Part shown: one piece after another, positions 14,184-40,747 of the stretch | Position numbering within the stretch: the first letter of the stretch is position 1 | Layout: each line of letters starts with the position of its first letter | From: a virus | Taxonomy: Duplodnaviria > Heunggongvirae > Uroviricota > Caudoviricetes | IMG/VR virus record: IMGVR_UViG_2909262264_000004 | DNA length: 42,000 nt | Direction: 5' to 3' (one strand) | Made by a program: the position numbers and the translations under genes | Notes under the pieces: model-generated | What the model was told of the DNA's origin: nothing | Databases searched by the model: none | The model's input: only the letters and a program-made list of their open reading frames with translations

Positions 14184-14199
14184 CAGAAGGAACAACAGT

Positions 14200-14955: not shown

Positions 14956-15054
14956 AAAGCGATAGAAAAAGTTAAGTTCCCGGTTGATCGAATGTATGCG
15001 AATCGCTGATCGGACTTCGATGCCAATCCGTGATCGAATAGAGCGGAATACGCA

Positions 15055-23557: not shown

Positions 23558-23904
23558 CAACCCGCTACACAGGAATGAACCCGGACGGAACGGGAAACCT
23601 GAACGATATGGAGCACCTGAAACAGTCAGTCAGGGACATCCTGACCACCCCGCTGGCAAGCCGGGTTATGCGACGGGAATATGGCAGCCTTGTGCCTGAT
23701 TTGATTGACGAACCCATGAATAACACCACGCGTCTGCAATGCATGAGTGCTGCCGTGATTGCGCTGACACGATGGGAACCCCGCATTGCCCTGGACGCTA
23801 TCGACGTTGTCTGGAAGGCAGGAGGCCGCGCCGGGGTGACGCTGTCGGGCACTGTCATGCAGACCATGCAGAATGTTGAATTAACCATCACGCTGAGGGA
23901 GTAA
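23554..23904 (+). CDS. W: Baseplate protein (P2 gpW / gp25-like)
   Basis: 116 aa; MTTRYTGMN...SRVMRREYGSL resembles P2 W. Confidence 0.85.
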   Translation: MTTRYTGMNPDGTGNLNDMEHLKQSVRDILTTPLASRVMRREYGSLVPDLIDEPMNNTTRLQCMSAAVIALTRWEPRIALDAIDVVWKAGGRAGVTLSGTVMQTMQNVELTITLRE

Positions 23905-23907
23905 ATC

Positions 23908-24804
23908 ATGCCTGCCGTTGACCTTTCACAGTTACCGGAACCCGCCATCATCGCGGAGCCTGACTTTGAGGCAATTCTGGCTGACACAAAGGCCATGATG
24001 ATTGCGTCCTATCCCGCCGAACAGCGTGAAGCCGTTTCCGCCGCGCTGGAGCTGGAATCGGAACCCCTTAACGTTATCGCTCAAACCATGTCGTTTCGTG
24101 AAATGCTGTTACGCCAGCGGGTCAATGAGGGTGCACGCGCCTGCATGCTAAGCCACAGCGCCGGGACAGACCTGGACAACCTCGCGGGCAATATGAACAC
24201 AAAGCGCCTGGTTATCACTCCGGCAACGGATACCACCGACGCAGTGATGGAAAGTGACACCTCGCTGAGACTACGGGCGCAACGGGCATATGACGGTCTG
24301 AGTGTTGCTGGCCCGTCAGGTGCATACGAGTATTTTGCACGCAGCGCCAGCGGTCTGGTACGCGATGCGCGGGCCATCAGCCCGTCTCCGGCCAACGTGA
24401 CGGTTTCCATCCTGTCCACTGAGGGCGACGGCACAGCAACGGAGGCGTTGCTTAATACCGTTCGCGCCGTTCTGAATGCAGAGGATACCCGCCCGGTGGC
24501 CGACCGCCTGACCGTACAGAGTGCCAGAATCGTGACATGGCGGCTGAATGCAAAACTGTACTTTTACCCCGGCCCGGAATCCGAACCTATTCTGGCCGCG
24601 GCGGAATCGTCGTTCAGGAAGTGGCTGTCTGAGCAGGGGCTTATCGGTCAGGACGTGGCGTTGTCCGCCATTGCTGCCGCACTGCATGTGCACGGTGTGC
24701 AACGCGTGGAGATAATCGAACCCACACAGAATATGGCCATCAGCGACATACAGGCGGCGCGCTGTGAGTCATTCACCATCAGCGAAGGTGGGCGCAATGA
24801 GTAA
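23908..24804 (+). CDS. J: Baseplate protein (P2 gpJ family)
   Basis: 298 aa, close to P2 J length; position. Confidence 0.9.
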   Translation: MPAVDLSQLPEPAIIAEPDFEAILADTKAMMIASYPAEQREAVSAALELESEPLNVIAQTMSFREMLLRQRVNEGARACMLSHSAGTDLDNLAGNMNTKRLVITPATDTTDAVMESDTSLRLRAQRAYDGLSVAGPSGAYEYFARSASGLVRDARAISPSPANVTVSILSTEGDGTATEALLNTVRAVLNAEDTRPVADRLTVQSARIVTWRLNAKLYFYPGPESEPILAAAESSFRKWLSEQGLIGQDVALSAIAAALHVHGVQRVEIIEPTQNMAISDIQAARCESFTISEGGRNE

Positions 24805-25327
24805 TTCGTTGTTACCACCATCAGCCAGCAATTTCATGCGTTGTGCCGAAGCCGTCGGAACACGCATTACAGACATTCCGGTAGACCTCAACACGCTGTG
24901 GTCGCCGGATACCTGCCCGGTGCATCTGCTGCCCTATCTCGCCTGGGCATTTTCCGTTGACCGCTGGGATCGCAACTGGCCGGAAGAGACAAAGCGACAG
25001 GTTATTCGTGATGCATGGCTGATACACCGACACAAAGGGACCATCAGCGCACTGCGCAGGGCCATTGAGCCGCTGGGATACCTCATTCGCGTGTCTGAGT
25101 GGTGGGAGTTCGGCGGAGAACCGGGAACATTTACCGTTGAAGTCGGCACACTGGACAGTGGCGTGACGGAGGAAATGTATCTGGAAATGGAGCGGTTGAT
25201 TGCTGATGCCCGTCCGGTCAGCCGCCACATGACAGGGCTGAATATCATTCAGGAAATTCCGGGGGATATTTTCGCAGCGGCGGCAACTTATGACGGTGAA
25301 GTTATTACCATTTATCCGGACGATTAA
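24797..25327 (+). CDS. I: Baseplate/tail protein (P2 gpI family)
   Basis: ATG at 24797 overlapping the J stop gives 176 aa, the P2 I length. Confidence 0.85.
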   Translation: MSNSLLPPSASNFMRCAEAVGTRITDIPVDLNTLWSPDTCPVHLLPYLAWAFSVDRWDRNWPEETKRQVIRDAWLIHRHKGTISALRRAIEPLGYLIRVSEWWEFGGEPGTFTVEVGTLDSGVTEEMYLEMERLIADARPVSRHMTGLNIIQEIPGDIFAAAATYDGEVITIYPDD

Positions 25328-25329
25328 GC

Positions 25330-26604
25330 ATGAGTACCACAACACGAAAATTTAAAACCGTTATCACCGATACAGGTGCAAAAAAATTAGCTCAGGCAGC
25401 CGCGCCAGATGGTAAGCCTGTCCGCCTGACTCATATGGCCGTGGGCGACGGTGGCGGCACGTTGCCCACACCAGACAGTAAGCAGACCCGTCTGGTGCAT
25501 GAGGTGTGGCGACATACTGTTAATCGCGTCATCCTGGACGCAACACATCAGAACCGCATTATTGCGGAGCTGGTTATACCTCCTGAAACGGGCGGATTCT
25601 GGATCCGGGAAATTGGTGTATTTGATGAGCACGGCGATTTAATCGCGGTGGGCAATACTGCCGAAAGTTACAAGCCAACCGTTGCCGAGGGGTCCGGACG
25701 TGCACAAACATTTCGCACCATTCTGACCGTATCCAGCACTGCCAGCGTGGCGCTTACCGTGGATAACACCATGGTGATGGCCACAGTGGATTACGTGGAT
25801 GACAAACTGAAAGAGCATGAACAGTCACGACGTCACCCGGATGCCTCGCTGACCGCAAAAGGCTTTGTTCAACTCAGTAGCGCCACTAACAGCGATTCTG
25901 AAACGCTGGCCGCAACGCCGAAAGCGGTTAAGGCCGCGTATGACCTGGCTAACGGAAAATATACCGCTCAGGACGCCACGACGGCACGAAAAGGGATAGT
26001 CCAGCTCAGCAGTGCAACCAACAGCACGTCTGAAACGCTGGCAGCGACACCAAAAGCGGTTAAGGCGGTAATGGATGAAACGAACAAGAAAGCCCCATTA
26101 AACAGCCCGGCACTGACCGGAACGCCAACAACACCAACTGCACGACAGGGAACGAATAATACCCAAATCGCAAGCACGGCTTTCGTTATGGCCGCGATTG
26201 CCGCACTTGTAGATTCGTCACCTGACGCACTGAACACGCTGAACGAGCTGGCGGCGGCGCTGGGCAACGACCCGAATTTTGCGACCACCATGACTAACGC
26301 GCTTGCGGGTAAGCAACCGAAAGATGCCACCCTGACAGCGCTGGCCGGGCTTGCTACTGCGGCAGACAGGTTTCCGTATTTTACGGGGAATGATGTTGCC
26401 AGTCTGGCAACCCTGACAGAAGTCGGGCGGGATATTCTTGCGAAATCGACCGTTGCCGCTGTTATCGAATACCTCGGTTTACAGGAAACGGTAAATCAGG
26501 CTTCTGGCGCATTACAGAAAAACCAGAACGGCGCAGATATTCCGGTGGACTTACTTTTGAAAACGACTCAATCCTTGCCTGTCGCGCATATAGCGCATGG
26601 CTGA
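25330..26604 (+). CDS. H: Tail fibre protein, proximal/constant part (P2 gpH family), ends prematurely
   Basis: 424 aa with repeated QLSSATNS.SETLAATPKAVKA units as in P2 H. Stop at 26602-26604 lies inside the shared block, and the distal fibre sequence continues in another frame. Confidence 0.8.
   Translation: MSTTTRKFKTVITDTGAKKLAQAAAPDGKPVRLTHMAVGDGGGTLPTPDSKQTRLVHEVWRHTVNRVILDATHQNRIIAELVIPPETGGFWIREIGVFDEHGDLIAVGNTAESYKPTVAEGSGRAQTFRTILTVSSTASVALTVDNTMVMATVDYVDDKLKEHEQSRRHPDASLTAKGFVQLSSATNSDSETLAATPKAVKAAYDLANGKYTAQDATTARKGIVQLSSATNSTSETLAATPKAVKAVMDETNKKAPLNSPALTGTPTTPTARQGTNNTQIASTAFVMAAIAALVDSSPDALNTLNELAAALGNDPNFATTMTNALAGKQPKDATLTALAGLATAADRFPYFTGNDVASLATLTEVGRDILAKSTVAAVIEYLGLQETVNQASGALQKNQNGADIPVDLLLKTTQSLPVAHIAHG
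26462..26487. promoter_or_regulatory. gix/pix-like 26-bp invertase crossover site (left)
   Basis: ttatcgaatacctcggtttacaggaa is the reverse complement, with 2 mismatches, of the site at 29571-29596. Resembles Gin/Pin/Cin sites as recalled. Confidence 0.6.
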
Positions 26605-26879
26605 ATATTGGTGGCGATAGTCAGGTCTGGACAACTGCGCAATTTATTTCGTGGCTGGAGAGTCAGGGGGCATTTAACCATCCTTACTGGATGTGCAAAG
26701 GCTCATGGGCTTATGCAAATAATAAGGTCATTACAGATACAGGTTGCGGAAATATTTGTCTTGCAGGTGCTGTGGTGGAAGTTATTGGCACTCGCGGCGC
26801 AATGACCATACGCGTTACTACGCCGAGTACGTCCAGCGGCGGCGGAATTACTAACGCTCAATTCACTTATATTAATCAT
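26577..26879. repeat. 303-bp inverted repeat, left copy (shared tail-fibre block)
   Basis: Matches the reverse complement of 29181-29483 over all stretches compared; encodes ACRAYSAWLNIGG...FTYINH in frame 0. Confidence 0.85.
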
Positions 26880-27437
26880 GGTGATGCTTACGCTCCTGGC
26901 TGGCGACGAGACTACAATACGAAAAACCAGCAGCCTGCATTTGCTTTAGGGCAAACAGGAAGCACTGTCGGAAATGATAAAGCTGTTGGCTGGAACTGGA
27001 ATAGCGGGGTCTATAACGCAAATATTGGTGGCGCATCGACATTAATCCTCCACTTCAATATGAATACGGGGAGCAGCCCTGCTGTACAGTTCCGCGTGAA
27101 TTACAGAAATGGCGGTATCTTTTATCGTTCAGCGCGTGATGGTTATGGCTTTGAAGCTGACTGGTCAGAGTTTTACACCACAACCCGCAAACCCTCTGCG
27201 GGAGATGTTGGTGCATATACGCAGGCAGAATGTAACTCAAGGTTTATTACAGGTATTCGCTTGGGCGGTCTGTCATCTGTTCAGACATGGAATGGTCCCG
27301 GCTGGTCTGACAGGTCAGGTTATGTCGTTACGGGTTCAGTTAACGGAAACCGTGATGAATTAATTGATACAACTCAGGTCATGTATTGTCTGGTATTAAT
27401 GTTCAGGATACAGGGTCCAACTCTGCCGATAATATAG
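26691..27437 (+). CDS. Tail fibre distal (variable) region, currently expressed orientation
   Basis: Frame-0 reading frame is open from 26394 to 27437 (first ATG 26691). Encodes SGGLTFENDSILA... typical of H distal regions, in a different frame from H. Confidence 0.6.
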   Translation: MCKGSWAYANNKVITDTGCGNICLAGAVVEVIGTRGAMTIRVTTPSTSSGGGITNAQFTYINHGDAYAPGWRRDYNTKNQQPAFALGQTGSTVGNDKAVGWNWNSGVYNANIGGASTLILHFNMNTGSSPAVQFRVNYRNGGIFYRSARDGYGFEADWSEFYTTTRKPSAGDVGAYTQAECNSRFITGIRLGGLSSVQTWNGPGWSDRSGYVVTGSVNGNRDELIDTTQVMYCLVLMFRIQGPTLPII

Positions 27438-27506
27438 CGGGCGTTTATTACAGACCCGTTCAAAAGTATATAAATGGCACCTGGTATAATGTAGCGAGCG
27501 TTTAAT

Positions 27507-27890
27507 ATGATGCACTTAAAGAACATAAAAGCGGGTAACGCTAAAACACTGGAACAGTATGAGTTAACAAAGAAACACGGAGTTATCTGGCTTTACTCTG
27601 AGGACGAAAAAAACTGGTATGAGGAACAAAAGAATTTCCAGCCAGACACAATAAAGATTGTTTACGATGCAAATAATATTATTGTCGCCATCACTAAAGA
27701 TGCCTCCACGCTTAACCCTGAAGGTTTTAGTGTCGTTGAGGTTCCCGATATTACAGCCAACCGCCGCGCTGATGATTCAGGAAAGTGGATGTTTAAGGAT
27801 GGAGCTGTAGTTAAACGGATTTATACGGCAAACGAGCAACAACAACAGGCCGAATCGCAAAAGGCTGGGCATCATTTCCGACGAGAATAA
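27507..27890 (+). CDS. Tail fibre assembly chaperone (Tfa, P2 gpG-like); C-terminus out of frame
   Basis: 127 aa; N-terminal ~120 aa identical to the minus-strand copy. The +1 frame continues to about 27982 with a Tfa-like end (..VTFPEQPE). Confidence 0.7.
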
Positions 27891-28012
27891 ACAAAAATTA
27901 ACCGAGTGGATGCTCTATGCGCAGAAAGTCGAATCTACAGACACCTCCAGCCTGCCAGTAACATTTCCCGAACAACCTGAATGAGACAAGGCCCGATAGC
28001 GGGCCTTAATTT

Positions 28013-28615
28013 TTATTCAGGCTTTTGTGGCCATTCAGGATTTGCCGTATCCACACGGCTGACCAGAACACTGTAGCGTTCCCATGCTTCCAGTCGTGTA
28101 CGTTCCTCATCTGTTGCCATATTCAGCCTGACAGCGCGTTCCAGTGGCTGAATAACGCTTTCTGCTTCGGAAAGTAACGCAGCCTTTTGCGATTCGGCCT
28201 GTTGTTGTTGCTCGTTTGCCGTATAAATCCGTTTAACTACAGCTCCATCCTTAAACATCCACTTTCCTGAATCATCAGCGCGGCGGTTGGCTGTAATATC
28301 GGGAACCTCAACGACACTAAAACCTTCAGGGTTAAGCGTGGAGGCATCTTTAGTGATGGCGACAATAATATTATTTGCATCGTAAACAATCTTTATTGTG
28401 TCTGGCTGAAAGTTTTTCACTTCCTCATACCAGTTTTTTTCGTCCTCAGAGTAAAGCCAGATAACTCCGTGTTTCTTTGTTAACTCATACTGTTCCAGTG
28501 TTTTAGCGTTACCCGCTTTTATGTTCTTTAAGTGCATCATATTAAATTGTTTCGTTAGCTGGTATTGCTCTTTTGTTTTAGGGTTGCCAGCAGTAATGTT
28601 TTTTAAGTGCATCAT
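28013..28615 (-). CDS. Alternative tail fibre assembly chaperone (Tfa')
   Basis: 200-aa ORF; likely start at the second [10 protein letters not shown] (28540). First 25 codons are a diverged in-frame duplicate of the N-terminus. Ends ..EWPQKPE. Confidence 0.7.
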
Positions 28616-28648
28616 CGTTAAATACTCCCCGCGTTATACCACGTCCCA

Positions 28649-29182
28649 TTAATGCAATACCAGACAATACATGACCTGAGTTGTATCAATTAATTCATCA
28701 CGGTTTCCGTTAACTGAACCCGTAACGACATAACCTGACCTGTCAGACCAGCCGGGACCATTCCATGTCTGAACAGATGACAGACCGCCCAAGCGAATAA
28801 CTTGCGAGCCGCAAAGCCAGTTCCCGTTATTATCCATGTACGCCTGACCATCGGTGCCATTGGCTGTCCTTGAGTTATTAATCATGTAGATGCCAAATTG
28901 CTTATTTCCCAGACCGCCAATCATAAATTTGCGGTCGGCGTGATTCTGGCGAAGCAACGCCTGAGCGCTATCAGTGTTAACTATATTTTTCCCAAAGATA
29001 GCGTTGTTATCGCGCATCTGAATCCACATACCATTACTGCTGTTAATAGCAAAACGGTCTGAAAGTGTCTCCCCTGAAACATTAAGACCACGCCCCATCG
29101 AAACAGCGCCAGTAGCGTTATTAATCCATAATGGCCTTAATCCGTTATAAGTCCCCATGTTGTCACCGGAGTTTGTCAACAT
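28649..29182 (-). CDS. Alternative tail fibre distal segment (Sv'), silent orientation
   Basis: 177 aa; C-terminal ~47 aa identical to the plus-strand distal segment (IRLGGLSSVQTWNGPGW...). Out of frame (+1) with the shared block at 29181. Confidence 0.6.
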   Translation of the reverse strand: MLTNSGDNMGTYNGLRPLWINNATGAVSMGRGLNVSGETLSDRFAINSSNGMWIQMRDNNAIFGKNIVNTDSAQALLRQNHADRKFMIGGLGNKQFGIYMINNSRTANGTDGQAYMDNNGNWLCGSQVIRLGGLSSVQTWNGPGWSDRSGYVVTGSVNGNRDELIDTTQVMYCLVLH

Positions 29183-29483
29183 GATTAATATAAGTGAATT
29201 GAGCGTTAGTAATTCCGCCGCCGCTGGACGTACTCGGCGTAGTAACGCGTATGGTCATTGCGCCGCGAGTGCCAATAACTTCCACCACAGCACCTGCAAG
29301 ACAAATATTTCCGCAACCTGTATCTGTAATGACCTTATTATTTGCATAAGCCCATGAGCCTTTGCACATCCAGTAAGGATGGTTAAATGCCCCCTGACTC
29401 TCCAGCCACGAAATAAATTGCGCAGTTGTCCAGACCTGACTATCGCCACCAATATTCAGCCATGCGCTATATGCGCGACAGGC
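29181..29483. repeat. 303-bp inverted repeat, right copy
   Basis: Reverse complement of 26577-26879. Confidence 0.85.
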
Positions 29484-29570
29484 CCCAATATTTTTGGTGA
29501 AGGTATCTTTTCCCGGAATATCTGCGCCGTTCTGGTTTTTCTGTAATGCGCCAGAAGCCTTGTTTACCGT

Positions 29571-29596
29571 TTCCTGTAAACCGAGGTTTTAGATAA
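29571..29596. promoter_or_regulatory. gix/pix-like 26-bp invertase crossover site (right)
   Basis: ttcctgtaaaccgaggttttagataa, about 55 bp upstream of the invertase gene. Confidence 0.6.
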
Positions 29597-29650
29597 TGGC
29601 CGTTTCCGGCCTGCATGGCATGATTTGCGCTTTTGGACGGGAGATTCAGC

Positions 29651-30238
29651 GTGCTGATTGGCTATGTAAGGGTATCAACAAATGACCAGAATACAGACCT
29701 GCAACGAAACGCTCTTGTTTGTGCAGGATGTGAACAAATATTTGAAGATAAATTAAGCGGGACAAAGACAGACCGACCGGGATTAAAACGCGCTTTAAAG
29801 CGCCTTCAAAAAGGTGACACGCTGGTTGTCTGGAAACTGGATCGCCTCGGGCGAAGCATGAAACATCTGATTTCTCTCGTCGGGGAACTACGGGAGCGAG
29901 GAATTAATTTTCGCAGTCTGACCGACAGCATAGATACATCTTCTCCAATGGGGCGTTTTTTCTTCCACGTGATGGGTGCCCTGGCTGAAATGGAACGTGA
30001 ATTAATTGTTGAACGTACACTGGCCGGACTGGCGGCAGCACGCGCACGGGGGCGCACAGGCGGACGTCGACCGAAGCTGACAAAAGAACAGCATGAGCAA
30101 ATAGCAAGGCTGATCAAAAACGGGCACGACAGAAAACAACTGGCAATAATTTACGGCATTGGTATATCGACGATTTATCGTTACCACCCCGCAGGAGAAT
30201 CAAGCGGAACAATAGAGAAGAGTCAGGAAACAAAATAA
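29651..30238 (+). CDS. pin: Serine DNA invertase (Pin/Gin/Hin family)
   Basis: GTG start after gggag; N-terminus LIGYVRVSTNDQ with catalytic Ser, C-terminal HTH; near-identical N-terminus to e14 Pin as recalled. Confidence 0.9.
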   Translation: MLIGYVRVSTNDQNTDLQRNALVCAGCEQIFEDKLSGTKTDRPGLKRALKRLQKGDTLVVWKLDRLGRSMKHLISLVGELRERGINFRSLTDSIDTSSPMGRFFFHVMGALAEMERELIVERTLAGLAAARARGRTGGRRPKLTKEQHEQIARLIKNGHDRKQLAIIYGIGISTIYRYHPAGESSGTIEKSQETK

Positions 30239-30272
30239 CCGCTAATCTGACCATTAGCGGTTTTTGTGTTAA
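30239..30272. terminator. Bidirectional intrinsic terminator between convergent pin and U
   Basis: ccgctaat-ctgacc-attagcgg hairpin with A-run on one side and T-run on the other. Confidence 0.5.
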
Positions 30273-30273
30273 A

Positions 30274-30768
30274 TCAGAACAGCCCTTTAACGGAGCTGGC
30301 CGCGCTGTTAAGGGATGATGTGACCTTATCTTTGAAGCCGGACAGCATATCACTGAACGATGAGGATTGCAGGCGCTCCCGCAAATCCTCATCACAGCGT
30401 TCAAGAGTCAGTGAAAATTCTATCTTTTTCGCCTTACCGTAGCGATCAAACTCGGAGCGGGTCGTATTCGTTTCAGTCAGTACATACATGCCGTAAATCT
30501 GCCCGACACCATCAATCAGAGGCCAGGGGCGTCCTGTATATGCCTGCGTGGTCAGCAGCGAAAGCGACACTTCGCCACCTGTAATTTCAGGATAAAGCAC
30601 GCCAGAAAGCACGATGCGATCATCACCTGCACCGATATACTGCCAGCTTGCTGAGCGATTTACGCGCTCATTTTTCACATGCCGCCAGCTTTTGTTTTGC
30701 TGTAACTGCTGATGCGGCAGTGTGCGCAGCTCAAAAACAAACATGCCGTAGATCATCATCATGACCAT
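30274..30768 (-). CDS. U: Tail protein U (P2 gpU family)
   Basis: 164 aa; MMM.YGMFVFELRT..NKSWRHV..RVNRS resembles P2 U. Confidence 0.85.
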   Translation of the reverse strand: MVMMMIYGMFVFELRTLPHQQLQQNKSWRHVKNERVNRSASWQYIGAGDDRIVLSGVLYPEITGGEVSLSLLTTQAYTGRPWPLIDGVGQIYGMYVLTETNTTRSEFDRYGKAKKIEFSLTLERCDEDLRERLQSSSFSDMLSGFKDKVTSSLNSAASSVKGLF

Positions 30769-30774
30769 GACTCC

Positions 30775-33582
30775 TCAATCTTTATCGTAAAAACTGCCAC
30801 GTCCGGCACGGGCGCGCCGTTCCACCTCTGCCCTGACCATTTCACCGACCAGTTTCGCCAGTTCGCGGGGATTCTGCGTAACAACGTTATGCAGATGAAC
30901 ATGAATTTCACCGCCAAATCCGGAGACAGCAGGCTCCCGATTACGGGAAGCTGCAGGAACTGATGCCACTGGCGATCGTATGGCCTCCGCCACCGGGCGG
31001 GAGCTGGCCGCAACAACAGGGACCAGCGCCGGAGGCAGCGGAGCCGGGACCACGGGTGTGATATTAATTGCGGGGGCAGGCTTACTGGCCTGCGCAATCT
31101 TCCGCTCCTGCCACTCCCCACGAACGGCAAGTGCGCGGGGCAGGTTCTTAAAGACAATATCGCCGGGGCCAATGCGTTTTTTCGTCTCATCAACCAGCTT
31201 ACCTGTGTTATCAGCAATTTTGCTGAGTCTGCGCAGCGTACCGGTATTGCTGTCTGTGAGCGGTTTATTGTCTTTGGGGTTATCACCTCCGGTGCCATTG
31301 CCATTTTCCACAGGCTTCGGCGGATTGATTTTCGCCAGGTCCCCCTGAAGCAAGGCAACCTTGTCCTGAAGAATGGCCGCACGCTGTGCGTCTTCGATTT
31401 TCTTGCGCGCCCTTTCCGCTTCATCCGGAAGCACACCAAGCTTTTCAAGTATCCACGCCAGCGTATCCAGCAACATTTTTGCAGGTGTCAGAACAAGTTG
31501 TAACGCACCGCCAAGAACGTTACCGAATATCTCGCCAGCACTGGTACATTTATCCAGAGTTTCCTTGCTGGACTCCATCGGTGACAGCAGCGATTTAAAC
31601 CAGTTAAACACCTGGCTGATCCCACTCCCGATTGCGTCAAAAACAGGACCAAACCGTTCAAAGGTTTCGCGCAACGGGGTCAGCCTTTCCATAATCCCGC
31701 TGAACACCCCGGCAAAAAATGCCCTGATGGGATCCCAGTATTTCCAGATAAGAACGGCAGCTCCGGCAAGCGCAGCCACGATAAGACCAACCGGACTGAA
31801 CAACGCCCCGATAGCGCCTCCCAGTAAAGAAACGGAACCCGTCACCATTCCCCATAGTGCTGGCAGAACCCTGACAGCATTCATTGATCCGGTCAGGAGG
31901 GAAAAACCAAGACGCAGTTTTGCCAGCGGGCCAGCAAGCACACCAATAGCCAGCGACAACGAGCCAACCGTTGCAGTCATTGCCAGCAGTGCACCGCCTG
32001 CAATCAGTAGCTGGCGCGTCAGTGCGGGATGGGCCTGCGCCAGCGCCGTCACCTTTGATACCACACGCGTGAGCCACTGCGTGACAGAACGCAGCGGACC
32101 GTCAATCAGATCTGCAATGCGGATGCGCAACCCTTCCCATGCACTGCTGAGTGATTTCAGATCGCCGTCAAGGTTGTTGGCCATAACCTTTGCCGTGCGT
32201 TCAGCCTCACCGCGCGCGCCTTCAAGTTCTTTTCTCAGTTTGGGTAAGGAGCCGTCACCTGCCGCATCAACGAGGGCCATAAATGATGTGAAAGCCTCTT
32301 CTCCGGCAATGTCCTTAAAGAACGATACCCGGTCAACTTCCCCGTATTTGCGGGTAGCTTTATAAAGGTCAGCCAGCACATCCTCCATCGGGCGCATTTT
32401 GCCCCCGGCATCCGAGACAGACACGCCAAGCTCTTTCAGCGCCTCTGCTGCCGCCTTTGGCGGTGATGCCAGACGAGCCAGGCTGGCACGCATTGCCGTA
32501 CCAGCATCACTCCCCCTGATACCCATATTCGCCAGCACGCCCGCCATCGCTGCGGCCTGCTCCAGCGATATTCCCAGCTTACCCGCCACCGGACCTGCAT
32601 ATTTCATGGTTTCACCCAGTGCGCGAAGGTCAGTGTTGGTACGGGTAAACGCTGCGGTGAGTGTGTCGCCGACCCGGTCCATCTGGTCAGCAGAAAGACC
32701 GAACTGCGTCAGAATATTTGAGCCAATATCCGCCGTCTCACCGAGGTCCATACCGCCAGCCGTTGCCATGCTCAGTACGCCAGGGAGCGCAGCCTGAATG
32801 GCCTGTGGTGTAAAGCCAGCCATTGCAAGAAATGCCTGTCCACTGGCGGCATCGCCTGCGGTGAACTGCGTTTCAGAGCCAAGTTTTAACGCCTGCTCAC
32901 GCAGCGCCTTAAACTGCGGGCTGTTCTGGTCGATTCGCGTCAGTGCCTGAACGCGGGACATCTCTTTGCCGAACCCGATCGCAGGCTGCAAAAAACGCCC
33001 GGCAGCATAGCCGCCCGCCGCTGCCGCACCAATTGCCAGCGCACCACCTGTTTTCAGTTTTCCCGCTGTTTCCTGCGCGCGCGAATACCGCTCACGCGCC
33101 CGTGTTACACGCGCAAGCGCCTGCCGTTCGCGTTCAAGCTGGTTGTTGTACTGTTCGGTGCGTCTGATGGCCTGCTGGATGGTGTTATCGCTGCCTGTCA
33201 GGGAAATGCCGTGGCGTTTCAGCTCTCCGCCAAGCTCCCGCATTTTCTGAATTTCCCGTGTGCGCGATTCATTCAGGCGTTCAAGCCGGGTGCTTAACTG
33301 CTGCATCAGCTTTTGTTGTTTTTCGCTGAGCACTGTACCCGTGCGTTGTAACTGATTAAGGGCGTTAAGCTGGCGTCGTGCTTTCACGATGCCCGCATCC
33401 GCTTTACTGACAGCGTCACGGGCGCGCTCAAATGATCGCGCCTGACGCTCGAGATTTTTGATCGCCCCCTGCGTTCGCTGGATGGAGTCACCAAACTGCC
33501 CCATCAGGCGGCGGGCGTTTTCGGCAGGCCGGGTCAGCCTGTCAACGGCGCTGAAAGCGACCCGGATATCAAGAGTCTTCAT
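30775..33582 (-). CDS. T: Tail tape measure protein (P2 gpT family)
   Basis: ORF to 33618 (GTG); ATG at 33582 overlaps the E' stop. Ala/Gly-rich with a transmembrane-like middle region. Confidence 0.85.
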   Translation of the reverse strand: MKTLDIRVAFSAVDRLTRPAENARRLMGQFGDSIQRTQGAIKNLERQARSFERARDAVSKADAGIVKARRQLNALNQLQRTGTVLSEKQQKLMQQLSTRLERLNESRTREIQKMRELGGELKRHGISLTGSDNTIQQAIRRTEQYNNQLERERQALARVTRARERYSRAQETAGKLKTGGALAIGAAAAGGYAAGRFLQPAIGFGKEMSRVQALTRIDQNSPQFKALREQALKLGSETQFTAGDAASGQAFLAMAGFTPQAIQAALPGVLSMATAGGMDLGETADIGSNILTQFGLSADQMDRVGDTLTAAFTRTNTDLRALGETMKYAGPVAGKLGISLEQAAAMAGVLANMGIRGSDAGTAMRASLARLASPPKAAAEALKELGVSVSDAGGKMRPMEDVLADLYKATRKYGEVDRVSFFKDIAGEEAFTSFMALVDAAGDGSLPKLRKELEGARGEAERTAKVMANNLDGDLKSLSSAWEGLRIRIADLIDGPLRSVTQWLTRVVSKVTALAQAHPALTRQLLIAGGALLAMTATVGSLSLAIGVLAGPLAKLRLGFSLLTGSMNAVRVLPALWGMVTGSVSLLGGAIGALFSPVGLIVAALAGAAVLIWKYWDPIRAFFAGVFSGIMERLTPLRETFERFGPVFDAIGSGISQVFNWFKSLLSPMESSKETLDKCTSAGEIFGNVLGGALQLVLTPAKMLLDTLAWILEKLGVLPDEAERARKKIEDAQRAAILQDKVALLQGDLAKINPPKPVENGNGTGGDNPKDNKPLTDSNTGTLRRLSKIADNTGKLVDETKKRIGPGDIVFKNLPRALAVRGEWQERKIAQASKPAPAINITPVVPAPLPPALVPVVAASSRPVAEAIRSPVASVPAASRNREPAVSGFGGEIHVHLHNVVTQNPRELAKLVGEMVRAEVERRARAGRGSFYDKD

Positions 33583-33805
33583 TGTCTGCATTCCCGCTAC
33601 GAAGTGCCGCCCGCTCACGCCAGCTAACCACTTCGCCGGGCGTCATCATGAAGATTTCGGCGGGCGACCAGTTAAAAATGGCGGCAATATCCGCCACCAG
33701 ATCTTCGATGTGCTCAAAGCACACCAGGGTGATTACGCTGCCGTCTCCTGCACGCTCTTCGCGCCAGAGTCTGGCTCGCTCATAAAATTTACAGCCACAG
33801 CGCAC
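33569..33805 (-). CDS. E' extension reading frame (tail assembly chaperone E+E' by -1 frameshift)
   Basis: Open -1 frame overlapping the 3' end of E and running to the T start, as for P2 E/E'. Confidence 0.55.
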   Translation of the reverse strand: MRCGCKFYERARLWREERAGDGSVITLVCFEHIEDLVADIAAIFNWSPAEIFMMTPGEVVSWRERAALRSGNADNEDS

Positions 33806-34107
33806 AACTGAATAAAATCGCGTGACGACATTTTTTTAATCATCACTTCATCCAGTCGTGGCGAGGTCACGCGAGGCAACAGCGTGAACATGGTATCCGC
33901 TTTCAGATTCAGCACATCAGACAGCGACAGACCACGCAGGGATCCAGCCTGCTCAATAGCCCCGGTGATCTCCACATACGTGATTTTTTCGCCACCACGC
34001 TCAATTGGTCGGGTCAGTTTTACGCCACGTTCGGCAGCCATATCCTCACATGCCGTCACATCATCCGCCATGGTGTTATTCCGGGTTTCAGTATCGATGT
34101 CTTTCAT
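33733..34107 (-). CDS. E: Tail assembly chaperone E (P2 gpE-like)
   Basis: ATG at 34107 with aaggag RBS; between tube and tape measure; carries the slippery site near its 3' end. Confidence 0.7.
   Translation of the reverse strand: MKDIDTETRNNTMADDVTACEDMAAERGVKLTRPIERGGEKITYVEITGAIEQAGSLRGLSLSDVLNLKADTMFTLLPRVTSPRLDEVMIKKMSSRDFIQLCAVAVNFMSEPDSGAKSVQETAA
33784..33790 (-). other. Candidate -1 slippery heptamer A_AAT_TTT in E
   Basis: X_XXY_YYZ heptamer in the E frame (gta aat ttt atg); a -1 shift reads KFYERARLW, the E' frame. Confidence 0.45.
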
Positions 34108-34162
34108 CAGTTGTCTCCTTTTCAGTCAGAGGCGACGCACTGCGCCGCCAGCATATTACTTA

Positions 34163-34675
34163 TCAGCCAAGCCCAAGCGCGGAACGGATGCGATCGGGCA
34201 CAATGTCCTTGCCGTCCTTCCGGTAAATGAAGTTCAGCAGGTCAATCTCCCACAACGGGCGATCGTTAACACTCAGCTTGTAGTAGGTGTTTTTAATGGC
34301 GTAAGTGTGTGATGTGGCTTCGCCCTGTTTGGCTTCCCCCATATCAATTTCCGTCACACGTCCGCGCATTTCGACTTCATACAGGTCGCTTTCTGCATCG
34401 GTGTAGTATTCACCCGCAAAACGCAGCAGCGTGCCGTCAATCGTGCCGCCATACTTAAGGAACAGCTCACGAACTGCGCCCCCCATGACAAAGCTCGCAT
34501 CAAGCGCGGAGTCGTCCAGGCCGAGATCAATACTTACCGCCCCCATCATGCCACCACCCCGGTAGCTGTCGGTTTTGCGCGTCAGCTTAGGCAGAGTGAC
34601 GGACGTCACCTTACCCACTTCGTTTTCACCATCCACAAACAGCGTAAAAAAGCGAAGATGTTTTGGCACAGCCAT
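34163..34675 (-). CDS. FII: Tail tube protein (P2 gpFII family)
   Basis: 170 aa, close to P2 FII length; follows the sheath gene with overlapping stop/start. Confidence 0.9.
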   Translation of the reverse strand: MAVPKHLRFFTLFVDGENEVGKVTSVTLPKLTRKTDSYRGGGMMGAVSIDLGLDDSALDASFVMGGAVRELFLKYGGTIDGTLLRFAGEYYTDAESDLYEVEMRGRVTEIDMGEAKQGEATSHTYAIKNTYYKLSVNDRPLWEIDLLNFIYRKDGKDIVPDRIRSALGLG

Positions 34676-35859
34676 CAGGCACCTCCCAGCACCGCAAATG
34701 CGGGTTCAAAGTATTCATCAGTAAACGTCTGGTAAAGCTCCATGTCTTCCAGTGGCGGAACGGGCGTATATTTGTAGCGAATACGCACACGTCCCTGACG
34801 TAAATCCGTGGTGCTGTTATCCACCACGTCATACCAGCACTCCGCGCCAATCAGTTTCCCGGCAGTAACCAGTGAATCCAGTTTTGCCCTGATGGCACTG
34901 ATAACATCCTTCACGTTCGCAGGCGTCAGTGGACTGTCGATGGTTTCAAACTGCGCTTCCGCAATTGAATCAGCCAGCACCTGTGCGGTTCGGGTATACA
35001 CCTCAAAGATGTAGGCGTTCGTTTCCGGTGTGCGGTTACCCCAGAAGCGGAACCCGTTGCGACGAATAATGGTCGTGATTTCTTTGTTGTTGAGGCTGTT
35101 GGCATCACTGTCTTCGGCCTGCAACGACCAGAACACATGCCTGGACATCCCCAGCACATTTTTAACCGGAACGTTGGACAGCGATTTGTGCCAGCCCTGC
35201 TCATGGTCAATGTACGCACGAAGGCCGCACGCATAGGCAGGCGCGGGGAACGTTTCGTTTTTGCCACTTTTCGGGTTGTAGGCGATGAAGTCCGGCCATA
35301 AGAGCATCACCTCACGTTCGTTGAATTTCTGGCGGTAGGTAATCGCCTCAGCCATCGTGTTACAGCCGTGACATGAGGCATACACAAACGCGCGCAGTTT
35401 ACCCGCAATCACGCACAGGGATTTTGTTACCGCCTCCGTGTCCAGCTCCGGCGCGGCCAGAATACGCGGACGGTATCCGATGCTTTCATCCTGCTCTGCA
35501 ACAAGCAGCGCATACATCCCCGTATAGCTGCCGTCAGATTCAGAACCACCGATAACCAGTTGATCCTGCGTTTTTCCGTCTTCTTCTTTGTGTTCAGCCA
35601 CGCGAACGACGATCACCTTTGTGCTCACCTGGTCTGCGATGGCCTTAAGCGCACGATAAAGCGTCCCCGTTGTTCCGCATTTTCCCAGCACGTCATTGAC
35701 GCGGGTCAGCAGTGTGGGCTTGTTCAGCGGGAACAGCTCCGCATCCGCATCATCCGCCGTTGCCACGATACCGATAACACTGGAATCAACATCGTTAATC
35801 GCTGTTACCAGGTCGGTATTTTCCGTAACACGGGCACCATGAAAACGAGTTTCACTCAT
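34675..35859 (-). CDS. FI: Tail sheath protein (P2 gpFI family)
   Basis: 394 aa; PLNKP, KLRAF, WPDF, EQGWHK.LSNV, RRNGFRFWGNRT, YTPVPPLE blocks match P2 FI as recalled. Confidence 0.9.
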   Translation of the reverse strand: MSETRFHGARVTENTDLVTAINDVDSSVIGIVATADDADAELFPLNKPTLLTRVNDVLGKCGTTGTLYRALKAIADQVSTKVIVVRVAEHKEEDGKTQDQLVIGGSESDGSYTGMYALLVAEQDESIGYRPRILAAPELDTEAVTKSLCVIAGKLRAFVYASCHGCNTMAEAITYRQKFNEREVMLLWPDFIAYNPKSGKNETFPAPAYACGLRAYIDHEQGWHKSLSNVPVKNVLGMSRHVFWSLQAEDSDANSLNNKEITTIIRRNGFRFWGNRTPETNAYIFEVYTRTAQVLADSIAEAQFETIDSPLTPANVKDVISAIRAKLDSLVTAGKLIGAECWYDVVDNSTTDLRQGRVRIRYKYTPVPPLEDMELYQTFTDEYFEPAFAVLGGA

Positions 35860-36016
35860 AGCTTCAGCCCCTTGTATCCGTTAAATGATTCGGCAACAAT
35901 CATCACCCACCACGCGCGTAATCTCACCCCTGCGCCGTTCTCCCGCCACGGCGACAACAAAAAGCAGTAACCCCCTACGCACGCACATGCGACCATGCCG
36001 CACAGGGAGGGAACAG

Positions 36017-37126
36017 ATGACCGATACCACCATGCAATTGCTCAGTCAGAGCACAGACCCCGTGAAAATGCCGGATTTTGATATTCTCGCGGAGGGGGAA
36101 ACACTGTCCGGCGTGGCAGAGCGCCTGATGAGCCTGTCACTGACCGACAACCGGGGATTTGAAGCGGACCAGCTCACCATCACGCTGGATGATGCGGATG
36201 GTCAGTTGCAGCTACCGCCACGGGGCGCGCGCCTGACGGTTCTCATTGGCTGGAAAGGAGAACCGCTGACAGAAAAAGGCACTTACATTGTTGATGAAAT
36301 CGCACACGAAGGACCGCCGGACAGGCTGACTGTTTCAGCCAGAAGCGCAGATTTTCGGGATGAATTTAACGTTAAACGTGAGGTGTCCTGGCATGATGTG
36401 ACCGTTGAGCGCGTGGTATCCGCCATCGCTCATCGGTACGGTCTGAAACCACAAATCAGCGAAATGCTGATGGATATTGAAATCGACCACGCCGACCAGA
36501 CCGAAGAAAGCGACATGTCCTTCCTTACGCGCATGGCGGAAATGCTGGGCGCAATCACTACGGTAAAAAGCGGTAATCTGTTATTCATCATGCCAGGCGG
36601 TGGCGTGAACGCACAAGGCCAGCCGTTGCCCTCGTTCGCCATCACGCGCAGCAGTGGCGATCGCCATCAGTTCCGCATTGCTGACCGCGAAGCGTATACG
36701 GGGGTACGCGCTTACTGGCTTGATCTTAATTACGGGAAAAAGAAAAAAGTCAGCGTGAAACGCCGCAAACCGCCAAAACCCAAAAAGGAGAAAAGCAGCA
36801 GCCGTGAAGGTGATTATATGGAAGGCGCGGAAGGCAATGTGTTTGTGTTACGCAAGACTTATCAGAACGAGCAGGCAGCAAGACGCGCAGCGGCGGCAAA
36901 GTGGCAGCAGCTACAACGCGGAGCCGCATCATTTTCCATCACGCTGGCGCGTGGACGTGCAGAACTCTACCCCGAAATGCATGGCACGGTAACAGGATTT
37001 AAAAGCGAGATTGATAATCAGGACTGGATTATTGCGAAAGCCGAGCACACCATTGATAACAGCGGCTTTACCACGCAGCTTGAGCTTGAAGCAAAAATCC
37101 CGGAATGGATAGCAGAAACAGAGTGA
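36017..37126 (+). CDS. D: Late gene D protein (P2 gpD family)
   Basis: ATG at 36017 after gggagg; 369 aa; immediately upstream of ogr. Confidence 0.85.
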   Translation: MTDTTMQLLSQSTDPVKMPDFDILAEGETLSGVAERLMSLSLTDNRGFEADQLTITLDDADGQLQLPPRGARLTVLIGWKGEPLTEKGTYIVDEIAHEGPPDRLTVSARSADFRDEFNVKREVSWHDVTVERVVSAIAHRYGLKPQISEMLMDIEIDHADQTEESDMSFLTRMAEMLGAITTVKSGNLLFIMPGGGVNAQGQPLPSFAITRSSGDRHQFRIADREAYTGVRAYWLDLNYGKKKKVSVKRRKPPKPKKEKSSSREGDYMEGAEGNVFVLRKTYQNEQAARRAAAAKWQQLQRGAASFSITLARGRAELYPEMHGTVTGFKSEIDNQDWIIAKAEHTIDNSGFTTQLELEAKIPEWIAETE

Positions 37127-37168
37127 GCAACTTAGAATAGCGGCAGCACCACGTTAAGGGAGGTCGCT

Positions 37169-37429
37169 ATGTTCCGTTGTCCGCTTTGTGGCGCATCTGC
37201 CCGTATCCGCACCAGTCGTTCGGAAAATGATTCAAACACCGTACGGAAAAAATATTACCAGTGTAACAACCTGGAATGCGGCATAAGTTTCTCAACACTG
37301 GAAGCTTTCCATAAATTCACATCGAAACACGCCCCCGGCGTTCACTCTTCAGAAGGTATCCCGTGGCATGAGTTGCCAGCTTCACACAGGGGAAACAATC
37401 AGATGAGTTTGCCTTTACCTCAGAATTAA
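37169..37429 (+). CDS. ogr: Late-gene transcription activator, Ogr/Delta zinc finger
   Basis: MFRCPLCGASARIRTSR...KKYYQCNNLECGISF: C-x2-C ... C-x4-C pattern of Ogr. Confidence 0.85.
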   Translation: MFRCPLCGASARIRTSRSENDSNTVRKKYYQCNNLECGISFSTLEAFHKFTSKHAPGVHSSEGIPWHELPASHRGNNQMSLPLPQN

Positions 37430-37619
37430 CAGGCAGAATTGCCGGAGTAACAAAAAAGCGATAGATTACGCGCGGGTGCCTTTCGGCTGATGGTCGGAGG
37501 GAATACCCGAAGGCCAGATGTGGAAAGGCCCCGGAAAACATTTCTGTTTAACCGAGGCCCTAACCGTCTAACCTTAGCAAGTGATAGGTTAGCGCCTCCC
37601 TGAAAAAGGAGCAAGCGCT

Positions 37620-37760
37620 ATGTCGCAAAAATCGCTTACGGCCATCACGTTCTGCGTGACGGCAATCCTCATCATCTGGATGCTGCACGGTTCGCTGTGC
37701 GAAATACGGATGAGCTTCTGGGGAGCGGAGTTTGCGGCGTTCTTACAGTGTAAGCAGTAA
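37620..37760 (+). CDS. hok: Hok/Gef-family type I toxin-like membrane peptide
   Basis: 46 aa, below the ORF-track cutoff. aaggag RBS; one TM helix then SLCEIR..EFAAFLQCK, matching the Hok/Gef signature. Leader has a 7-bp-stem hairpin (ctaacct..aggttag). Confidence 0.65.
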   Translation: MSQKSLTAITFCVTAILIIWMLHGSLCEIRMSFWGAEFAAFLQCKQ

Positions 37761-37822
37761 GGAAACCGCGACGGGGGAGCAATCCCCCGTCAATCGGTTG
37801 CCAGGGTAAGGTCGATAAGGCA

Positions 37823-37833
37823 CCCTATCTCAC
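37823..37833. repeat. 11-bp direct repeat ccctatctcac (left)
   Basis: Identical copy at 39319-39329; both lie just outside the inverted ~115-bp repeats. Confidence 0.5.
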
Positions 37834-38169: not shown

Positions 38170-39003
38170 ATGGTCATGAATAATAAGCTAAAGGTAATTG
38201 AGTTAAATAGTCTTGATCTGTTTCGTAAAGAATTACTAACTACTATAAAGCCAGAGAAAGTAGAGAAATTACTTAGATGGTATCTTCAATCATATGGCGG
38301 TGTTAATTTCAAGTTCGGTTATGACAGACCAATTTTTAGAGCGCGAAAGTGCCCAAATGAATGCGGATATAATAACATCAGTGAGATATATCCCCCTCCA
38401 CCAGAAAAATGTAAAATAGGCCGAATGAATGATGATGGACAAGCTATCTTCTATGGCGCTTATAGTATCGGAACAGCTTTAGCCGAAATTAATGCAAAAG
38501 AAGGGGATTATGTTCACATAGCTCACTTTAAGATGCCGGAAAATTCAGAGTCTGGAATGCGATGTTTTGCTATCGGTGAGGTCTTTAATGTGTATCACGG
38601 TGTAAATACAATTTCAATTGAAGTGTTTAATGAAATTCGCGACATCATTAGCAGAATTGGTAAGGACGACATCCGAGCTTTGCTATCATATTTGTATATG
38701 GATGCCCTTTCTGCTGAGTTGCTTAATAGTATCAATGCCCATGAGGTAAATTATATTTACTCAAGAATTTTTTGCCGTCTTCTTCTTGATAAATACCCTG
38801 ATGTTGATGGTCTTATTTATCCTAGCGCTAAAATAAAAGGGGCCTCAAATATCGCTTTGCGCACAGAAACAGTTAAATCGAGAATGCATTTAGTTGCTAA
38901 TCTTGTGTTTAAAGTAAATAAAATTTATCCATATGGAATAGTAGATTTCAGTATAGTAAAACAAGCCAAAGGACATACATCAGATGGGCGCATCGTTTGG
39001 TGA
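38170..39003 (+). CDS. RES-domain protein (NAD+-targeting toxin family)
   Basis: 277 aa (ATG at 38176 has the better RBS). GRMNDDGQAIFYGAYSIGTALAE and GLIYPSAKIKGASNIAL fit the Arg...Glu...Ser RES signature as recalled. No antitoxin-like ORF adjacent. Confidence 0.55.
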   Translation: MVMNNKLKVIELNSLDLFRKELLTTIKPEKVEKLLRWYLQSYGGVNFKFGYDRPIFRARKCPNECGYNNISEIYPPPPEKCKIGRMNDDGQAIFYGAYSIGTALAEINAKEGDYVHIAHFKMPENSESGMRCFAIGEVFNVYHGVNTISIEVFNEIRDIISRIGKDDIRALLSYLYMDALSAELLNSINAHEVNYIYSRIFCRLLLDKYPDVDGLIYPSAKIKGASNIALRTETVKSRMHLVANLVFKVNKIYPYGIVDFSIVKQAKGHTSDGRIVW

Positions 39004-39208
39004 GCCAAACTTTTAGTTAGCTGATTGAAAAACCGATGCGTCAGTTTGCACTGCATGTGGTGTATGGGAAGCGCGGGCTTGTAGTGCAGGTCATTTCAGA
39101 AGAAGCTAACGAGAAAGCTTAGACATACTGTGACTACTAAACAAGCAGAAAGCCCGTGTTTATGGGGGGCAATCCACACAACAGGCGATGTCGATTAGTT
39201 AATACACT

Positions 39209-39318
39209 TGTATGAATAGAGACTCATTTTTGTGCATTAAGGAATCAGGCTTTCAGTCATCTTGCCTCTGCGCGAGGTTCGGGCTATCGAACCTCAATTC
39301 CTTAACTGAACTACATTG
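39209..39318. repeat. Terminal inverted repeat, right
   Basis: Reverse complement of 37841-37952. Confidence 0.7.
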
Positions 39319-39329
39319 CCCTATCTCAC
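39319..39329. repeat. 11-bp direct repeat ccctatctcac (right)
   Basis: Identical to 37823-37833. Confidence 0.5.
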
Positions 39330-39516
39330 AGCTCTAAATGCAAAAATCCCATGAAACTGTGGGTATTTCATTACACACTGACACTGCTCTACCTTTCTAT
39401 ATGTATCACTCTAAACCAGTTAATCAATTGGCACTTATCAACAACAAAAAATCTGATAAAATTAAAATGTTTTGTAACAAATTTCAGCTTGTAGTGTTCC
39501 AAAGGAGACGGATTAC

Positions 39517-39849
39517 ATGGCATTAATCAAATGTCCTGAATGCCAGAAAGAGGTCAGCGATTCAGCATTATGTTGCCCTGCTTGTGGTAAACAACTGAAA
39601 AAACTTAAGCGTTCATTTTTTGGAAAACTCATTAAATGGGCTTTTATATTTTTTAATATTTTTATGATCTATACACTTTTAGTTGGACTAGGAGGCGCTG
39701 ATGAAATAATAAACAATACCACATCCGATGCCGAAAAAGCTGGGGCAGTTATTGGTACGGGCTTAGGTTTAATTGCCATTGGAGGCTTATGGGTTATTGG
39801 CGATATAATTATCGGAATTTTAGTGTTTCTTACTAAACCAAAGGGATAA
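39517..39849 (+). CDS. Zinc-ribbon membrane protein
   Basis: aaaggaga RBS; N-terminal CPEC...CPAC zinc ribbon then two hydrophobic helices; AT-rich. Confidence 0.5.
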   Translation: MALIKCPECQKEVSDSALCCPACGKQLKKLKRSFFGKLIKWAFIFFNIFMIYTLLVGLGGADEIINNTTSDAEKAGAVIGTGLGLIAIGGLWVIGDIIIGILVFLTKPKG

Positions 39850-39853
39850 TAAA

Positions 39854-40747
39854 ATGAAAAATATGATTTTTTCTATAGGTGCATTATTTATATCAATTAG
39901 TGTACTGCCTGTTCACGCAGCAACTGAACATAAGAATTTCAATGCAGTGCTCCAGTGCCGAGCGATAGAAAACAATAAAGACAGACTTTCTTGTTACGAT
40001 AAGTCAATACAACCGACTCGAACGAAAGTTGCTGAAAAATTTGAAAGCAGGGATCAATGCCCTGATGAGAAAGATGATGACAAACGTTTATCTTGTTATG
40101 ATCGTTTTTTTTCTCCAACATTTACTCCATCTGTAAACTCAAAATCTAAAACGGAAAAGCTAGTAACAACAGAGGCTCAGCAACCAAATCTTTCTGAAAT
40201 ATCTAAATGCCGAGCAGAAAATGATAAAGAAGCCAGACTAAACTGCTACGATAAACTATTCCCACAGAATGAAGCTGTTCAATCTGAATCACAATTAGAG
40301 AAAGCCACAGATGCAGGAAAATGGCACACGTCCATTACTACATCGCCAATTGATGATTCGAAAAATGTAATTTTATCGTTAGAAAGTGATGATTATATCA
40401 GAACTCCATTTGGAGAAGCTGTTACTCCCACTCTGTTTATAGCTTGCCGAGAAAAGAAAACCGAAGTATTTCTTAGTTGGGATGTATATTTAGGCCTTGA
40501 ACAAACCAGCATGCTGTATCGTCTTGATAAACAGAAAGCAGTTGAAAGAAACTGGCTAATATCTACAGATACAAAGGCTGTTTTTTATAAAGGTAATGAT
40601 ATTGATTTCATAAGAAAACTTGCCAACTCACATAAAATGTACACAAAAATAACCCCCTATAATGAAAGCCCTGTAAGTGCAACTTTCAATTTAAGCGGCC
40701 TGTCAAATGCACTAAAACCGCTTCAAGATGCTTGTAACTGGAAATAG
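39854..40747 (+). CDS. Secreted protein with three tandem Cys-containing repeats
   Basis: Signal peptide ending VHA-A; three repeats of C-x(11-13)-(R/K)L(S/N)CYD(K/R); 4 nt after the upstream gene. Confidence 0.5.
   Translation: MKNMIFSIGALFISISVLPVHAATEHKNFNAVLQCRAIENNKDRLSCYDKSIQPTRTKVAEKFESRDQCPDEKDDDKRLSCYDRFFSPTFTPSVNSKSKTEKLVTTEAQQPNLSEISKCRAENDKEARLNCYDKLFPQNEAVQSESQLEKATDAGKWHTSITTSPIDDSKNVILSLESDDYIRTPFGEAVTPTLFIACREKKTEVFLSWDVYLGLEQTSMLYRLDKQKAVERNWLISTDTKAVFYKGNDIDFIRKLANSHKMYTKITPYNESPVSATFNLSGLSNALKPLQDACNWK

Follow-up and report, generated by a model that had tools for sequence, protein, structure and literature searches.

The annotated record of bacteriophage P2 gives the late genes in the order V W J I H G ... 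FI FII E T U D ogr, all of them co-directional, and within this series FI-FII-E-E′-T-U-D make up one F operon, read from the promoter pF, in which U overlaps the terminal gene, D. The late promoters of P2 carry a TGT-N12-ACA dyad that is bound by Ogr and lies about 55 nt upstream of the start, and they have no good −35 element (PMC3931495). A single activator site (3057–3087 of the P2 record) serves both pP and pO, the starts of which (3016 and 3127) lie 55–56 nt to each side of it; a shared site for PP′/PO′ was likewise reported for Stenotrophomonas phage Smp131, which also keeps the FI...D operon (PMC3931495). The P2 order is found in 186, Fels-2 and Pseudomonas phage phiCTX as well.

Closer to the locus described here are P88, a plaque-forming phage that has been both induced and engineered (PMC5285337), and Citrobacter phage phiSM, an active temperate phage (PMC6456863). 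The present analysis concerns the late tail genes of a 42 kb stretch of viral DNA, here called the window, and their comparison with those of P2, P88 and related phages.

RESULTS

Gene positions and strands were taken from the ORF map together with tblastn searches using P2 proteins (E-values 1e-12 to 1e-112; Table 1). The window holds the late tail gene set of a P2-like phage (Peduoviridae), with homologues of FI, FII, E, T, U and D and of the Ogr/Delta activator, but not in the canonical P2 order, in which FI-FII-E-T-U-D run co-directionally with V-W-J-I-H. An earlier note, made from the letters of the window, had described U-T-E-FII-FI as lying on the minus strand between pin and D, with V-W-J-I-H and D-ogr on the plus strand; the ORF map and tblastn agree (minus-strand block at 30274–35859), and the P2 record, with FI-U co-directional with V-H, bears out that the block is inverted relative to P2. 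Also correct are the detachment of D from the F operon, D being divergent from FI across 157 bp, and the position of the left breakpoint next to the invertase gene, with 35 bp between the pin stop and the U stop. Set against P2, 186, Fels-2 and phiCTX, the window has FI-U inverted, D divergent from FI, and D at the head of a D-ogr unit of its own. FI is the opening gene of the leftward operon and U its final gene. The interval given for pin is that of the longest ORF, and the real start is probably a few codons downstream. Judged by its stem and T-runs, the hairpin in the pin/U gap would stop transcripts arriving from either side, that of pin as well as that of the leftward FI-U operon.

Table 1. 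Positions of late tail genes, candidate regulatory elements and the invertible segment in the 42 kb window
Feature	Position	Strand	Basis or remark
P/O late-promoter dyad, same prophage	16983–17000		−10-like hexamers at ±46 on both sides
V-W-J-I-H	22976–26604	+	ORF map and tblastn with P2 proteins
Tail-fibre invertible segment	26469–29589		Bounded by both gix-like cores; separate from the sheath-tube block
pin-like serine DNA invertase	29633–30238	+	Pfam Resolvase (E=1.5e-50) and HTH_7; P88 and P88_4B11 annotate a DNA invertase
Bidirectional hairpin terminator, pin/U gap	30237–30262	both	10-bp stem, T-run on each strand
gpU homologue, tail protein	30274–30768	−	46% identity to P2 U; size and position as in P88
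gpT homologue, tape measure	30775–33582	−	33% identity to P2 T over 733 aa; P88 annotation
E′ frame overlapping E, putative	33569–33724	−	By analogy with P88, where two small tail-protein CDS are annotated
gpE homologue	33733–34107	−	35% identity to P2 E
gpFII homologue, tail tube	34163–34675	−	42% identity to P2 FII
gpFI homologue, tail sheath	34675–35859	−	46% identity to P2 FI
FI-D spacer	35860–36016		157 bp, between divergent FI and D
−10-like hexamer GATGAT, candidate for leftward pF	35899–35904	−	Centre 46 nt from dyad centre
Putative Ogr/Delta-type activator dyad, TCT-N12-ACA	35939–35956		Extended GTTCT-N12-ACAAC at 35937–35958
−10-like hexamer GACCAT after TG-n, candidate for rightward pD	35991–35996	+	Centre 46 nt from dyad centre
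gpD homologue, baseplate hub / late control D	36017–37126	+	Pfam Phage_GPD; 48% identity to P2 D
ogr homologue, zinc-finger late activator	37169–37429	+	Pfam Ogr_Delta (E=1e-15); CX2C-X24-CX4C motif

The same layout recurs in close relatives. A 10.3-kb stretch spanning the region, used as query, proved collinear with P88 (95.9% identity, 89% coverage) and also with P88_4B11, phiSM and several further Escherichia phages, and window positions 29176–37831 form one 8.6-kb aligned block with P88 at 96.4% identity. Over the longer comparison (31 kb), 29.8 kb of the window aligns to P88 4812–35814, mostly at 95–97% identity and at 84–96% in the tail-fibre mosaic. The ICTV genus threshold is about 70% nucleotide identity, and by its identity to P88 and its divergent FI–D junction the window is a P88-like (Xuanwuvirus) prophage. 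The annotation tables of P88 and P88_4B11 give the invertase (+), five tail genes (−) and D (+), and throughout Xuanwuvirus P88 (NC_026014), P88_4B11, 500465-2, 520873, PhiR44_2, Chuche and phiSM the order is that of the window, pin - U T E FII FI (minus) - D ogr (plus); P88 and its close relatives share the FI-D spacer (157/158 bp) and its dyad too. The window differs from P88 in having an IS21-family insertion between Q and P and a duplicated terminase 3′ end, in carrying different cargo after ogr, and in the opposite orientation of part of its tail-fibre invertible segment.

The earlier note had implied a noteworthy rearrangement, adding that the same arrangement in closely related functional phages would instead make it typical of the lineage. 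Since plaque-forming P88, active phiSM and P88_4B11 have the same order, it is this second result that was obtained: synteny comparison shows the order to be common to the P88-like phages, P2, 186 and Fels-2 differing in that they keep the P2 order. Moreover, a 1-kb probe across the FI–D junction was contiguous in 1354 of 5426 complete E. coli genomes (1378 gave any match), and the arrangement is therefore no assembly artefact, while a synthetic P2-style junction, with the 3′ end of U fused to the 5′ end of D, was found in none of the 1415 E. coli genomes carrying both halves. The block is not polymorphic in E. coli. The pin–U junction was contiguous in only 621 genomes, the U end abutting other DNA elsewhere, which fits a variable tail-fibre/cargo region beside a fixed block. 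For the proposal that a recent rearrangement or an assembly error flipped the sheath-tube block in this genome alone, only the contrast with P2 itself can be cited; against the identical junctions of P88, P88_4B11 and phiSM, the counts for the FI–D and U–D junctions in E. coli and the conservation of the order down to 61% identity in D (see below), we give it practically no credence.

The distribution of the order was followed with the D protein. IMG/VR was scanned with a D-protein alignment, and in all 80 loci kept, where D is 64–99% identical to that of the window, the order is U- T- E- FII- FI- followed by D+ ogr+. A second D-protein scan, taking one genome per species, yielded 48 loci at or above 61% identity in D, all of them with the inverted order; their hosts include Salmonella, Edwardsiella, Serratia, Erwinia, Pantoea, Enterobacter, Kosakonia, Klebsiella, Brenneria, Pectobacterium, Xenorhabdus, Photorhabdus, Providencia, Morganella, Hafnia and Yersinia, among others. 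Altogether 131 of 131 related loci with D at least 61% identical are inverted, from about 40 species of Enterobacterales, and among the scanned loci the P2 order is seen wherever identity to the D of the window is 54% or lower. NJ trees were built for D and for FI and rooted on phiCTX; both gather the inverted loci into one clade with a long stem (125/125 tips for D, 116/116 for FI), and no P2-order tip was found inside it in either tree. The deposited phages of the clade span four ICTV genera, Xuanwuvirus, Reginaelenavirus, Reipivirus and Novemvirus, and many prophages belong to it too. Given this single inverted clade, and the P2 order in P2, 186, Fels-2 and phiCTX, parsimony argues for one old inversion on the clade stem. 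Within Peduoviridae gene order distinguishes two clades; it does not define the family.

It is formally conceivable that the orientation was brought about by mosaic replacement, that is, by a sheath-tube module of another phage lineage inserted backwards, given the mosaic character of the tail-fibre region in P2-like phages. However, FI, FII, E, T and U of the window (33–46% identity to P2 by tblastn) show the same degree of divergence from P2 as the flanking genes V, W, D, Q and P (44–48%), FI and D trees recover the same clade, and the pF dyad stands at the same distance from the FI ATG in the two groups (80–88 nt, as against 79–86 nt in P2-order phages). We consider such a replacement improbable.

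A second possible route to the orientation is suggested by the neighbouring gene. A Pin-type invertase might have made the inversion, or might still make it, through cryptic gix sites, the block being a second invertible segment, and pin indeed ends 35 bp from the left breakpoint. When a gix-like core was searched for as AAACC-NN-GGTTT with at most 1 mismatch, the only two matches (26469–26480 and 29578–29589) proved to be the ends of the tail-fibre invertible segment; no such core was found at either breakpoint of the block, as the earlier note had also reported, and no inverted repeat beyond chance flanks the block. Most members of the inverted clade have no pin next to U, the block in many of them directly following the tail-fibre assembly gene, whereas Fels-2 has an invertase next to FI and yet retains the P2 order. 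A link between the inversion and the adjacent invertase, which the earlier note had left as a possibility, finds no support in this comparison. With the orientation uniform in the 1415 E. coli genomes as well, an origin through the invertase appears very improbable, and we found no support for a single ancient invertase-mediated event either.

Turning to the 157 bp between FI and D, the putative dyad is centred at 35947.5, which is 88.5 nt from the ATG of FI and 69.5 nt from that of D. Its left half-site reads TCT where the canonical one reads TGT, and an exact search for TGT-N12-ACA gave no match at late promoters in the window; the TCT-type sites were recognized by comparing the spacers of relatives. 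We observed a T[GC]T-N12-A[CG]A dyad at a fixed position, with its centre 80.5–88.5 nt from the FI ATG, in 113 of the 116 distinct FI-D spacers of the clade, as a rule one per spacer (three spacers have two overlapping matches), and perfect TGT-N12-ACA predominates among the more diverged members. For the −10-like elements, 38 spacers less than 80% identical to each other were anchored on the dyad and searched for nAnnnT. On the FI side 37 of the 38 have the motif centred exactly 46 nt from the midpoint of the dyad, and all have it within 1 nt of this offset (background median 2/38); on the D side it stands at +46 in 31 and within ±1 nt in all 38 (background median 1/38), and is often preceded by TG-n. 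From the hexamers of the window a minus-strand start is predicted near 35892 and a plus-strand start near 36003, the latter leaving D a short leader of about 14 nt.

At the level of sequence, the spacer has the make-up of an Ogr-dependent P2-type late promoter, with a dyad, −10-like hexamers and no good sigma-70 −35/−10 pair found within it, and also that of a bidirectional promoter of the pP/pO type, with one dyad and hexamers placed symmetrically at ±46. In P2-order phages the pF dyad lies 79.5–86.5 nt from FI, and of 17 spacers with this order 16 have the FI-side hexamer and only 6 a hexamer on the far side. As the FI-side hexamer is present in both orders, the FI side would therefore be the ancestral pF, carried along by the inversion, and the putative D-side element is specific to the inverted clade.

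The claim in the earlier note that D must have its own promoter consequently holds in part: D is detached from the F operon, but a fully separate promoter is unlikely, the activator site of pF being apparently shared (one dyad, hexamers at ±46). An opposing view would let the dyad serve pF only, with D read from an Ogr-independent promoter or the D-side conservation reflecting some other signal. GACCAT on the D side is a weak match to TATAAT, and ogr of P2 has its own promoter; both points favour this view. It has to contend with there being just one dyad per spacer, with a D-side hexamer that keeps the same 46-nt offset, often after TG, in 31 of 38 diverged spacers, with the agreement between that offset and the geometry of P2 pP/pO, and with the lack of a good sigma-70 pair in the spacer. 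We regard it as unlikely, although it deserves more weight than the routes to the inversion discussed above, and we prefer a dyad shared by pF and pD.

A comparison within the window is consistent with such sharing. The P-O spacer carries the same motif, GTTCT-N12-ACAAC, at 16981–17002, and the P-O and FI-D dyads are the only two in the 42 kb with −10-like hexamers on both sides. A third exact copy inside T (31497–31518) has no flanking −10 hexamers and was set aside as a chance occurrence. No separate pV-like dyad was seen upstream of R or V. A scan of IMG/VR with the O protein for diverged P-O spacers returned near-identical relatives only, and four complete phage genomes were used in place of IMG/VR hits to compare P-O with FI-D. 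In each of five genomes the two dyads agree in their half-site variant, Kp4872-3 having TGTG...CACA and the rest TCTG...GACA or GTTCT...ACAAC, which is what one would expect to see were each phage to use its own Ogr homologue at both sites. This covariation amounts to two variants only, in five lineages.

DISCUSSION

The analyses presented here indicate, with a probability that we put at roughly 85%, that minus-strand U-T-E-FII-FI is the fixed ancestral order of a deep clade of P2-like phages of Enterobacterales, inverted once on the stem of that clade and not rearranged in this genome, and that one symmetric activator site now serves both pF and pD. One old inversion of the segment extending from the pF activator site through FI to U would have carried the pF promoter and the dyad-symmetric Ogr-binding site along, placing both beside D. 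Because the site is symmetric, it could now serve two divergent late promoters: pF would read leftward through FI-FII-E/E′-T-U and stop at the bidirectional terminator beside pin, and a clade-specific pD would read rightward through D-ogr. The gene order and its distribution, as well as the conservation of the dyad and of the hexamers, are matters of observation; the transcription starts, and the dependence of pF and pD on Ogr, we infer from the positions of these elements.

With less confidence, we lean towards a fuller account, in which the inversion made use of the symmetry of the Ogr site by setting D on its unused side, where a second promoter of the pP/pO kind may then have evolved. Two dyads would thereby drive four units, D-ogr would be autoregulated by Ogr, and the inversion would be a clean synapomorphy that divides the Peduoviridae of enterobacteria into two clades of different architecture. 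The arrangement itself is already known, in that it is present in annotated public genomes. Among the papers searched we found none describing the inversion or its consequence for the promoter, although a prior description may still exist, and the shared-dyad promoter is best seen as a tidy but incremental proposal drawn from sequence.

Several points follow for work on these phages. A gene order that differs from that of the type phage P2 is not evidence of a rearrangement, given that a quarter of complete E. coli genomes carry the alternative architecture. The inversion marks, in simple structural terms, a deep clade extending across several ICTV genera, and the FI-D spacer provides a compact example of how a split operon may be rescued by a symmetric activator site. 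Those who engineer P88-like phages, or the P2-type tailocins of this clade, would have to reckon with D-ogr as a separate transcription unit.

Finally, the locus may be set beside the described systems that it most resembles. Like the Mu G, P1 C and e14 P segments (Gin/Cin/Pin), the window has a Pin-type invertase and a gix-bounded tail-fibre segment; the sheath-tube block, in contrast to those segments, is 5.6 kb of essential genes with no bounding gix sites and a single orientation in E. coli. All seven genes of the P2 F operon, and ogr, have homologues in the window at 33–48% identity. Upstream of FI the resemblance to the P2 F operon is close, P2 having a dyad about 83 nt before the FI start and a −10 element 46 nt from its centre, as does the window. 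The FI-D spacer in turn resembles P2 pP/pO, where a single dyad stands midway between two divergent late genes in a spacer of about 155–175 bp, with −10 elements about 46 nt, and starts about 55 nt, to each side. What distinguishes the window from P2 is that it would possess a second bidirectional region of the pP/pO kind, with starts predicted from its sequence, lying between FI and D, where P2 has no counterpart.

Dyad variants and related loci

The exact form of the FI–D dyad, the putative Ogr/Delta-type activator site in the FI–D spacer (GTTCT-N12-ACAAC), occurs a third time in the window, on the minus strand within the tape-measure gene T (31497–31518), where it is accompanied by a single weak −10-like hexamer (TACGCT), on one side only and 1 nt off the 46-nt offset that separates dyad and hexamer centres on both sides of the FI–D dyad. 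With about 0.08 such matches expected, we consider that this occurrence is probably due to chance. At four related loci (L079 and L080, together with L111 and L120 of Providencia) the FI–D dyad reads TCTCAT-N6-ATGAGA, i.e. TCT-N12-AGA, each half-site of which differs from the canonical TGT-N12-ACA; the sequences suggest an activator with altered specificity.

Inverted and P2 orders of the tail genes coexist in a single genome of Xenorhabdus bakwenae (CP119194): among its loci L119, L125 and L143, two show the inverted order and one that of P2. The contig of a further locus, L085 (NZ_JBQPOM010000071.1), bears the label Vagococcus sp. WN89Y, a Firmicute, and harbours this same enterobacterial prophage region (D 98% identical); the assembly is likely contaminated or mislabelled.

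Other features of the prophage

The additional features are collected in the table.

Features of the window outside the tail gene block
Feature	Coordinates	Strand	Remarks
isrK	4525–4599	plus	Early region; Rfam match at gathering score
C4 antisense RNA	4635–4722	plus	Early region; Rfam match at gathering score
ParM-like plasmid segregation and partition genes	8353–9628		Downstream of replication gene A; homology to P88 annotation
IS21-family element	11796–15166		Between portal gene Q and terminase gene P; interval takes in the left copy of the terminase 3′ end
IstA	12537–14183		rve and Mu-transposase C domains
IstB	13957–14955		Part of IS21-family element
RES-domain protein	38170–39003		Post-ogr cargo
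Zinc-ribbon protein	39517–39849		Post-ogr cargo
VasI-like protein	39854–40747		Post-ogr cargo

The ParM-like genes are unusual cargo in an integrating P2-like phage. The terminase 3′ end is directly duplicated around the IS21-family element (11796–12428 and 15167–15799, 98.3% identical), and gene P itself looks intact; in the plaque-forming relative P88, Q adjoins P directly.

Within the tail-fibre region (25330–29589), the H ORF ends at 26604, and a change of frame separates it from the fibre ORF that follows (26691–27437). The fibre gene may be split in the present orientation. The gix-bounded invertible segment (26469–29589) contains long inverted repeats (27251–27397/28656–28802 and 27501–27867/28180–28546), and 26462–27378 runs opposite to its P88 counterpart.

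The cargo after ogr (38170–40747) has a low GC content, about 37%; its zinc-ribbon and VasI-like proteins are likewise carried by the close relative P88_4B11.
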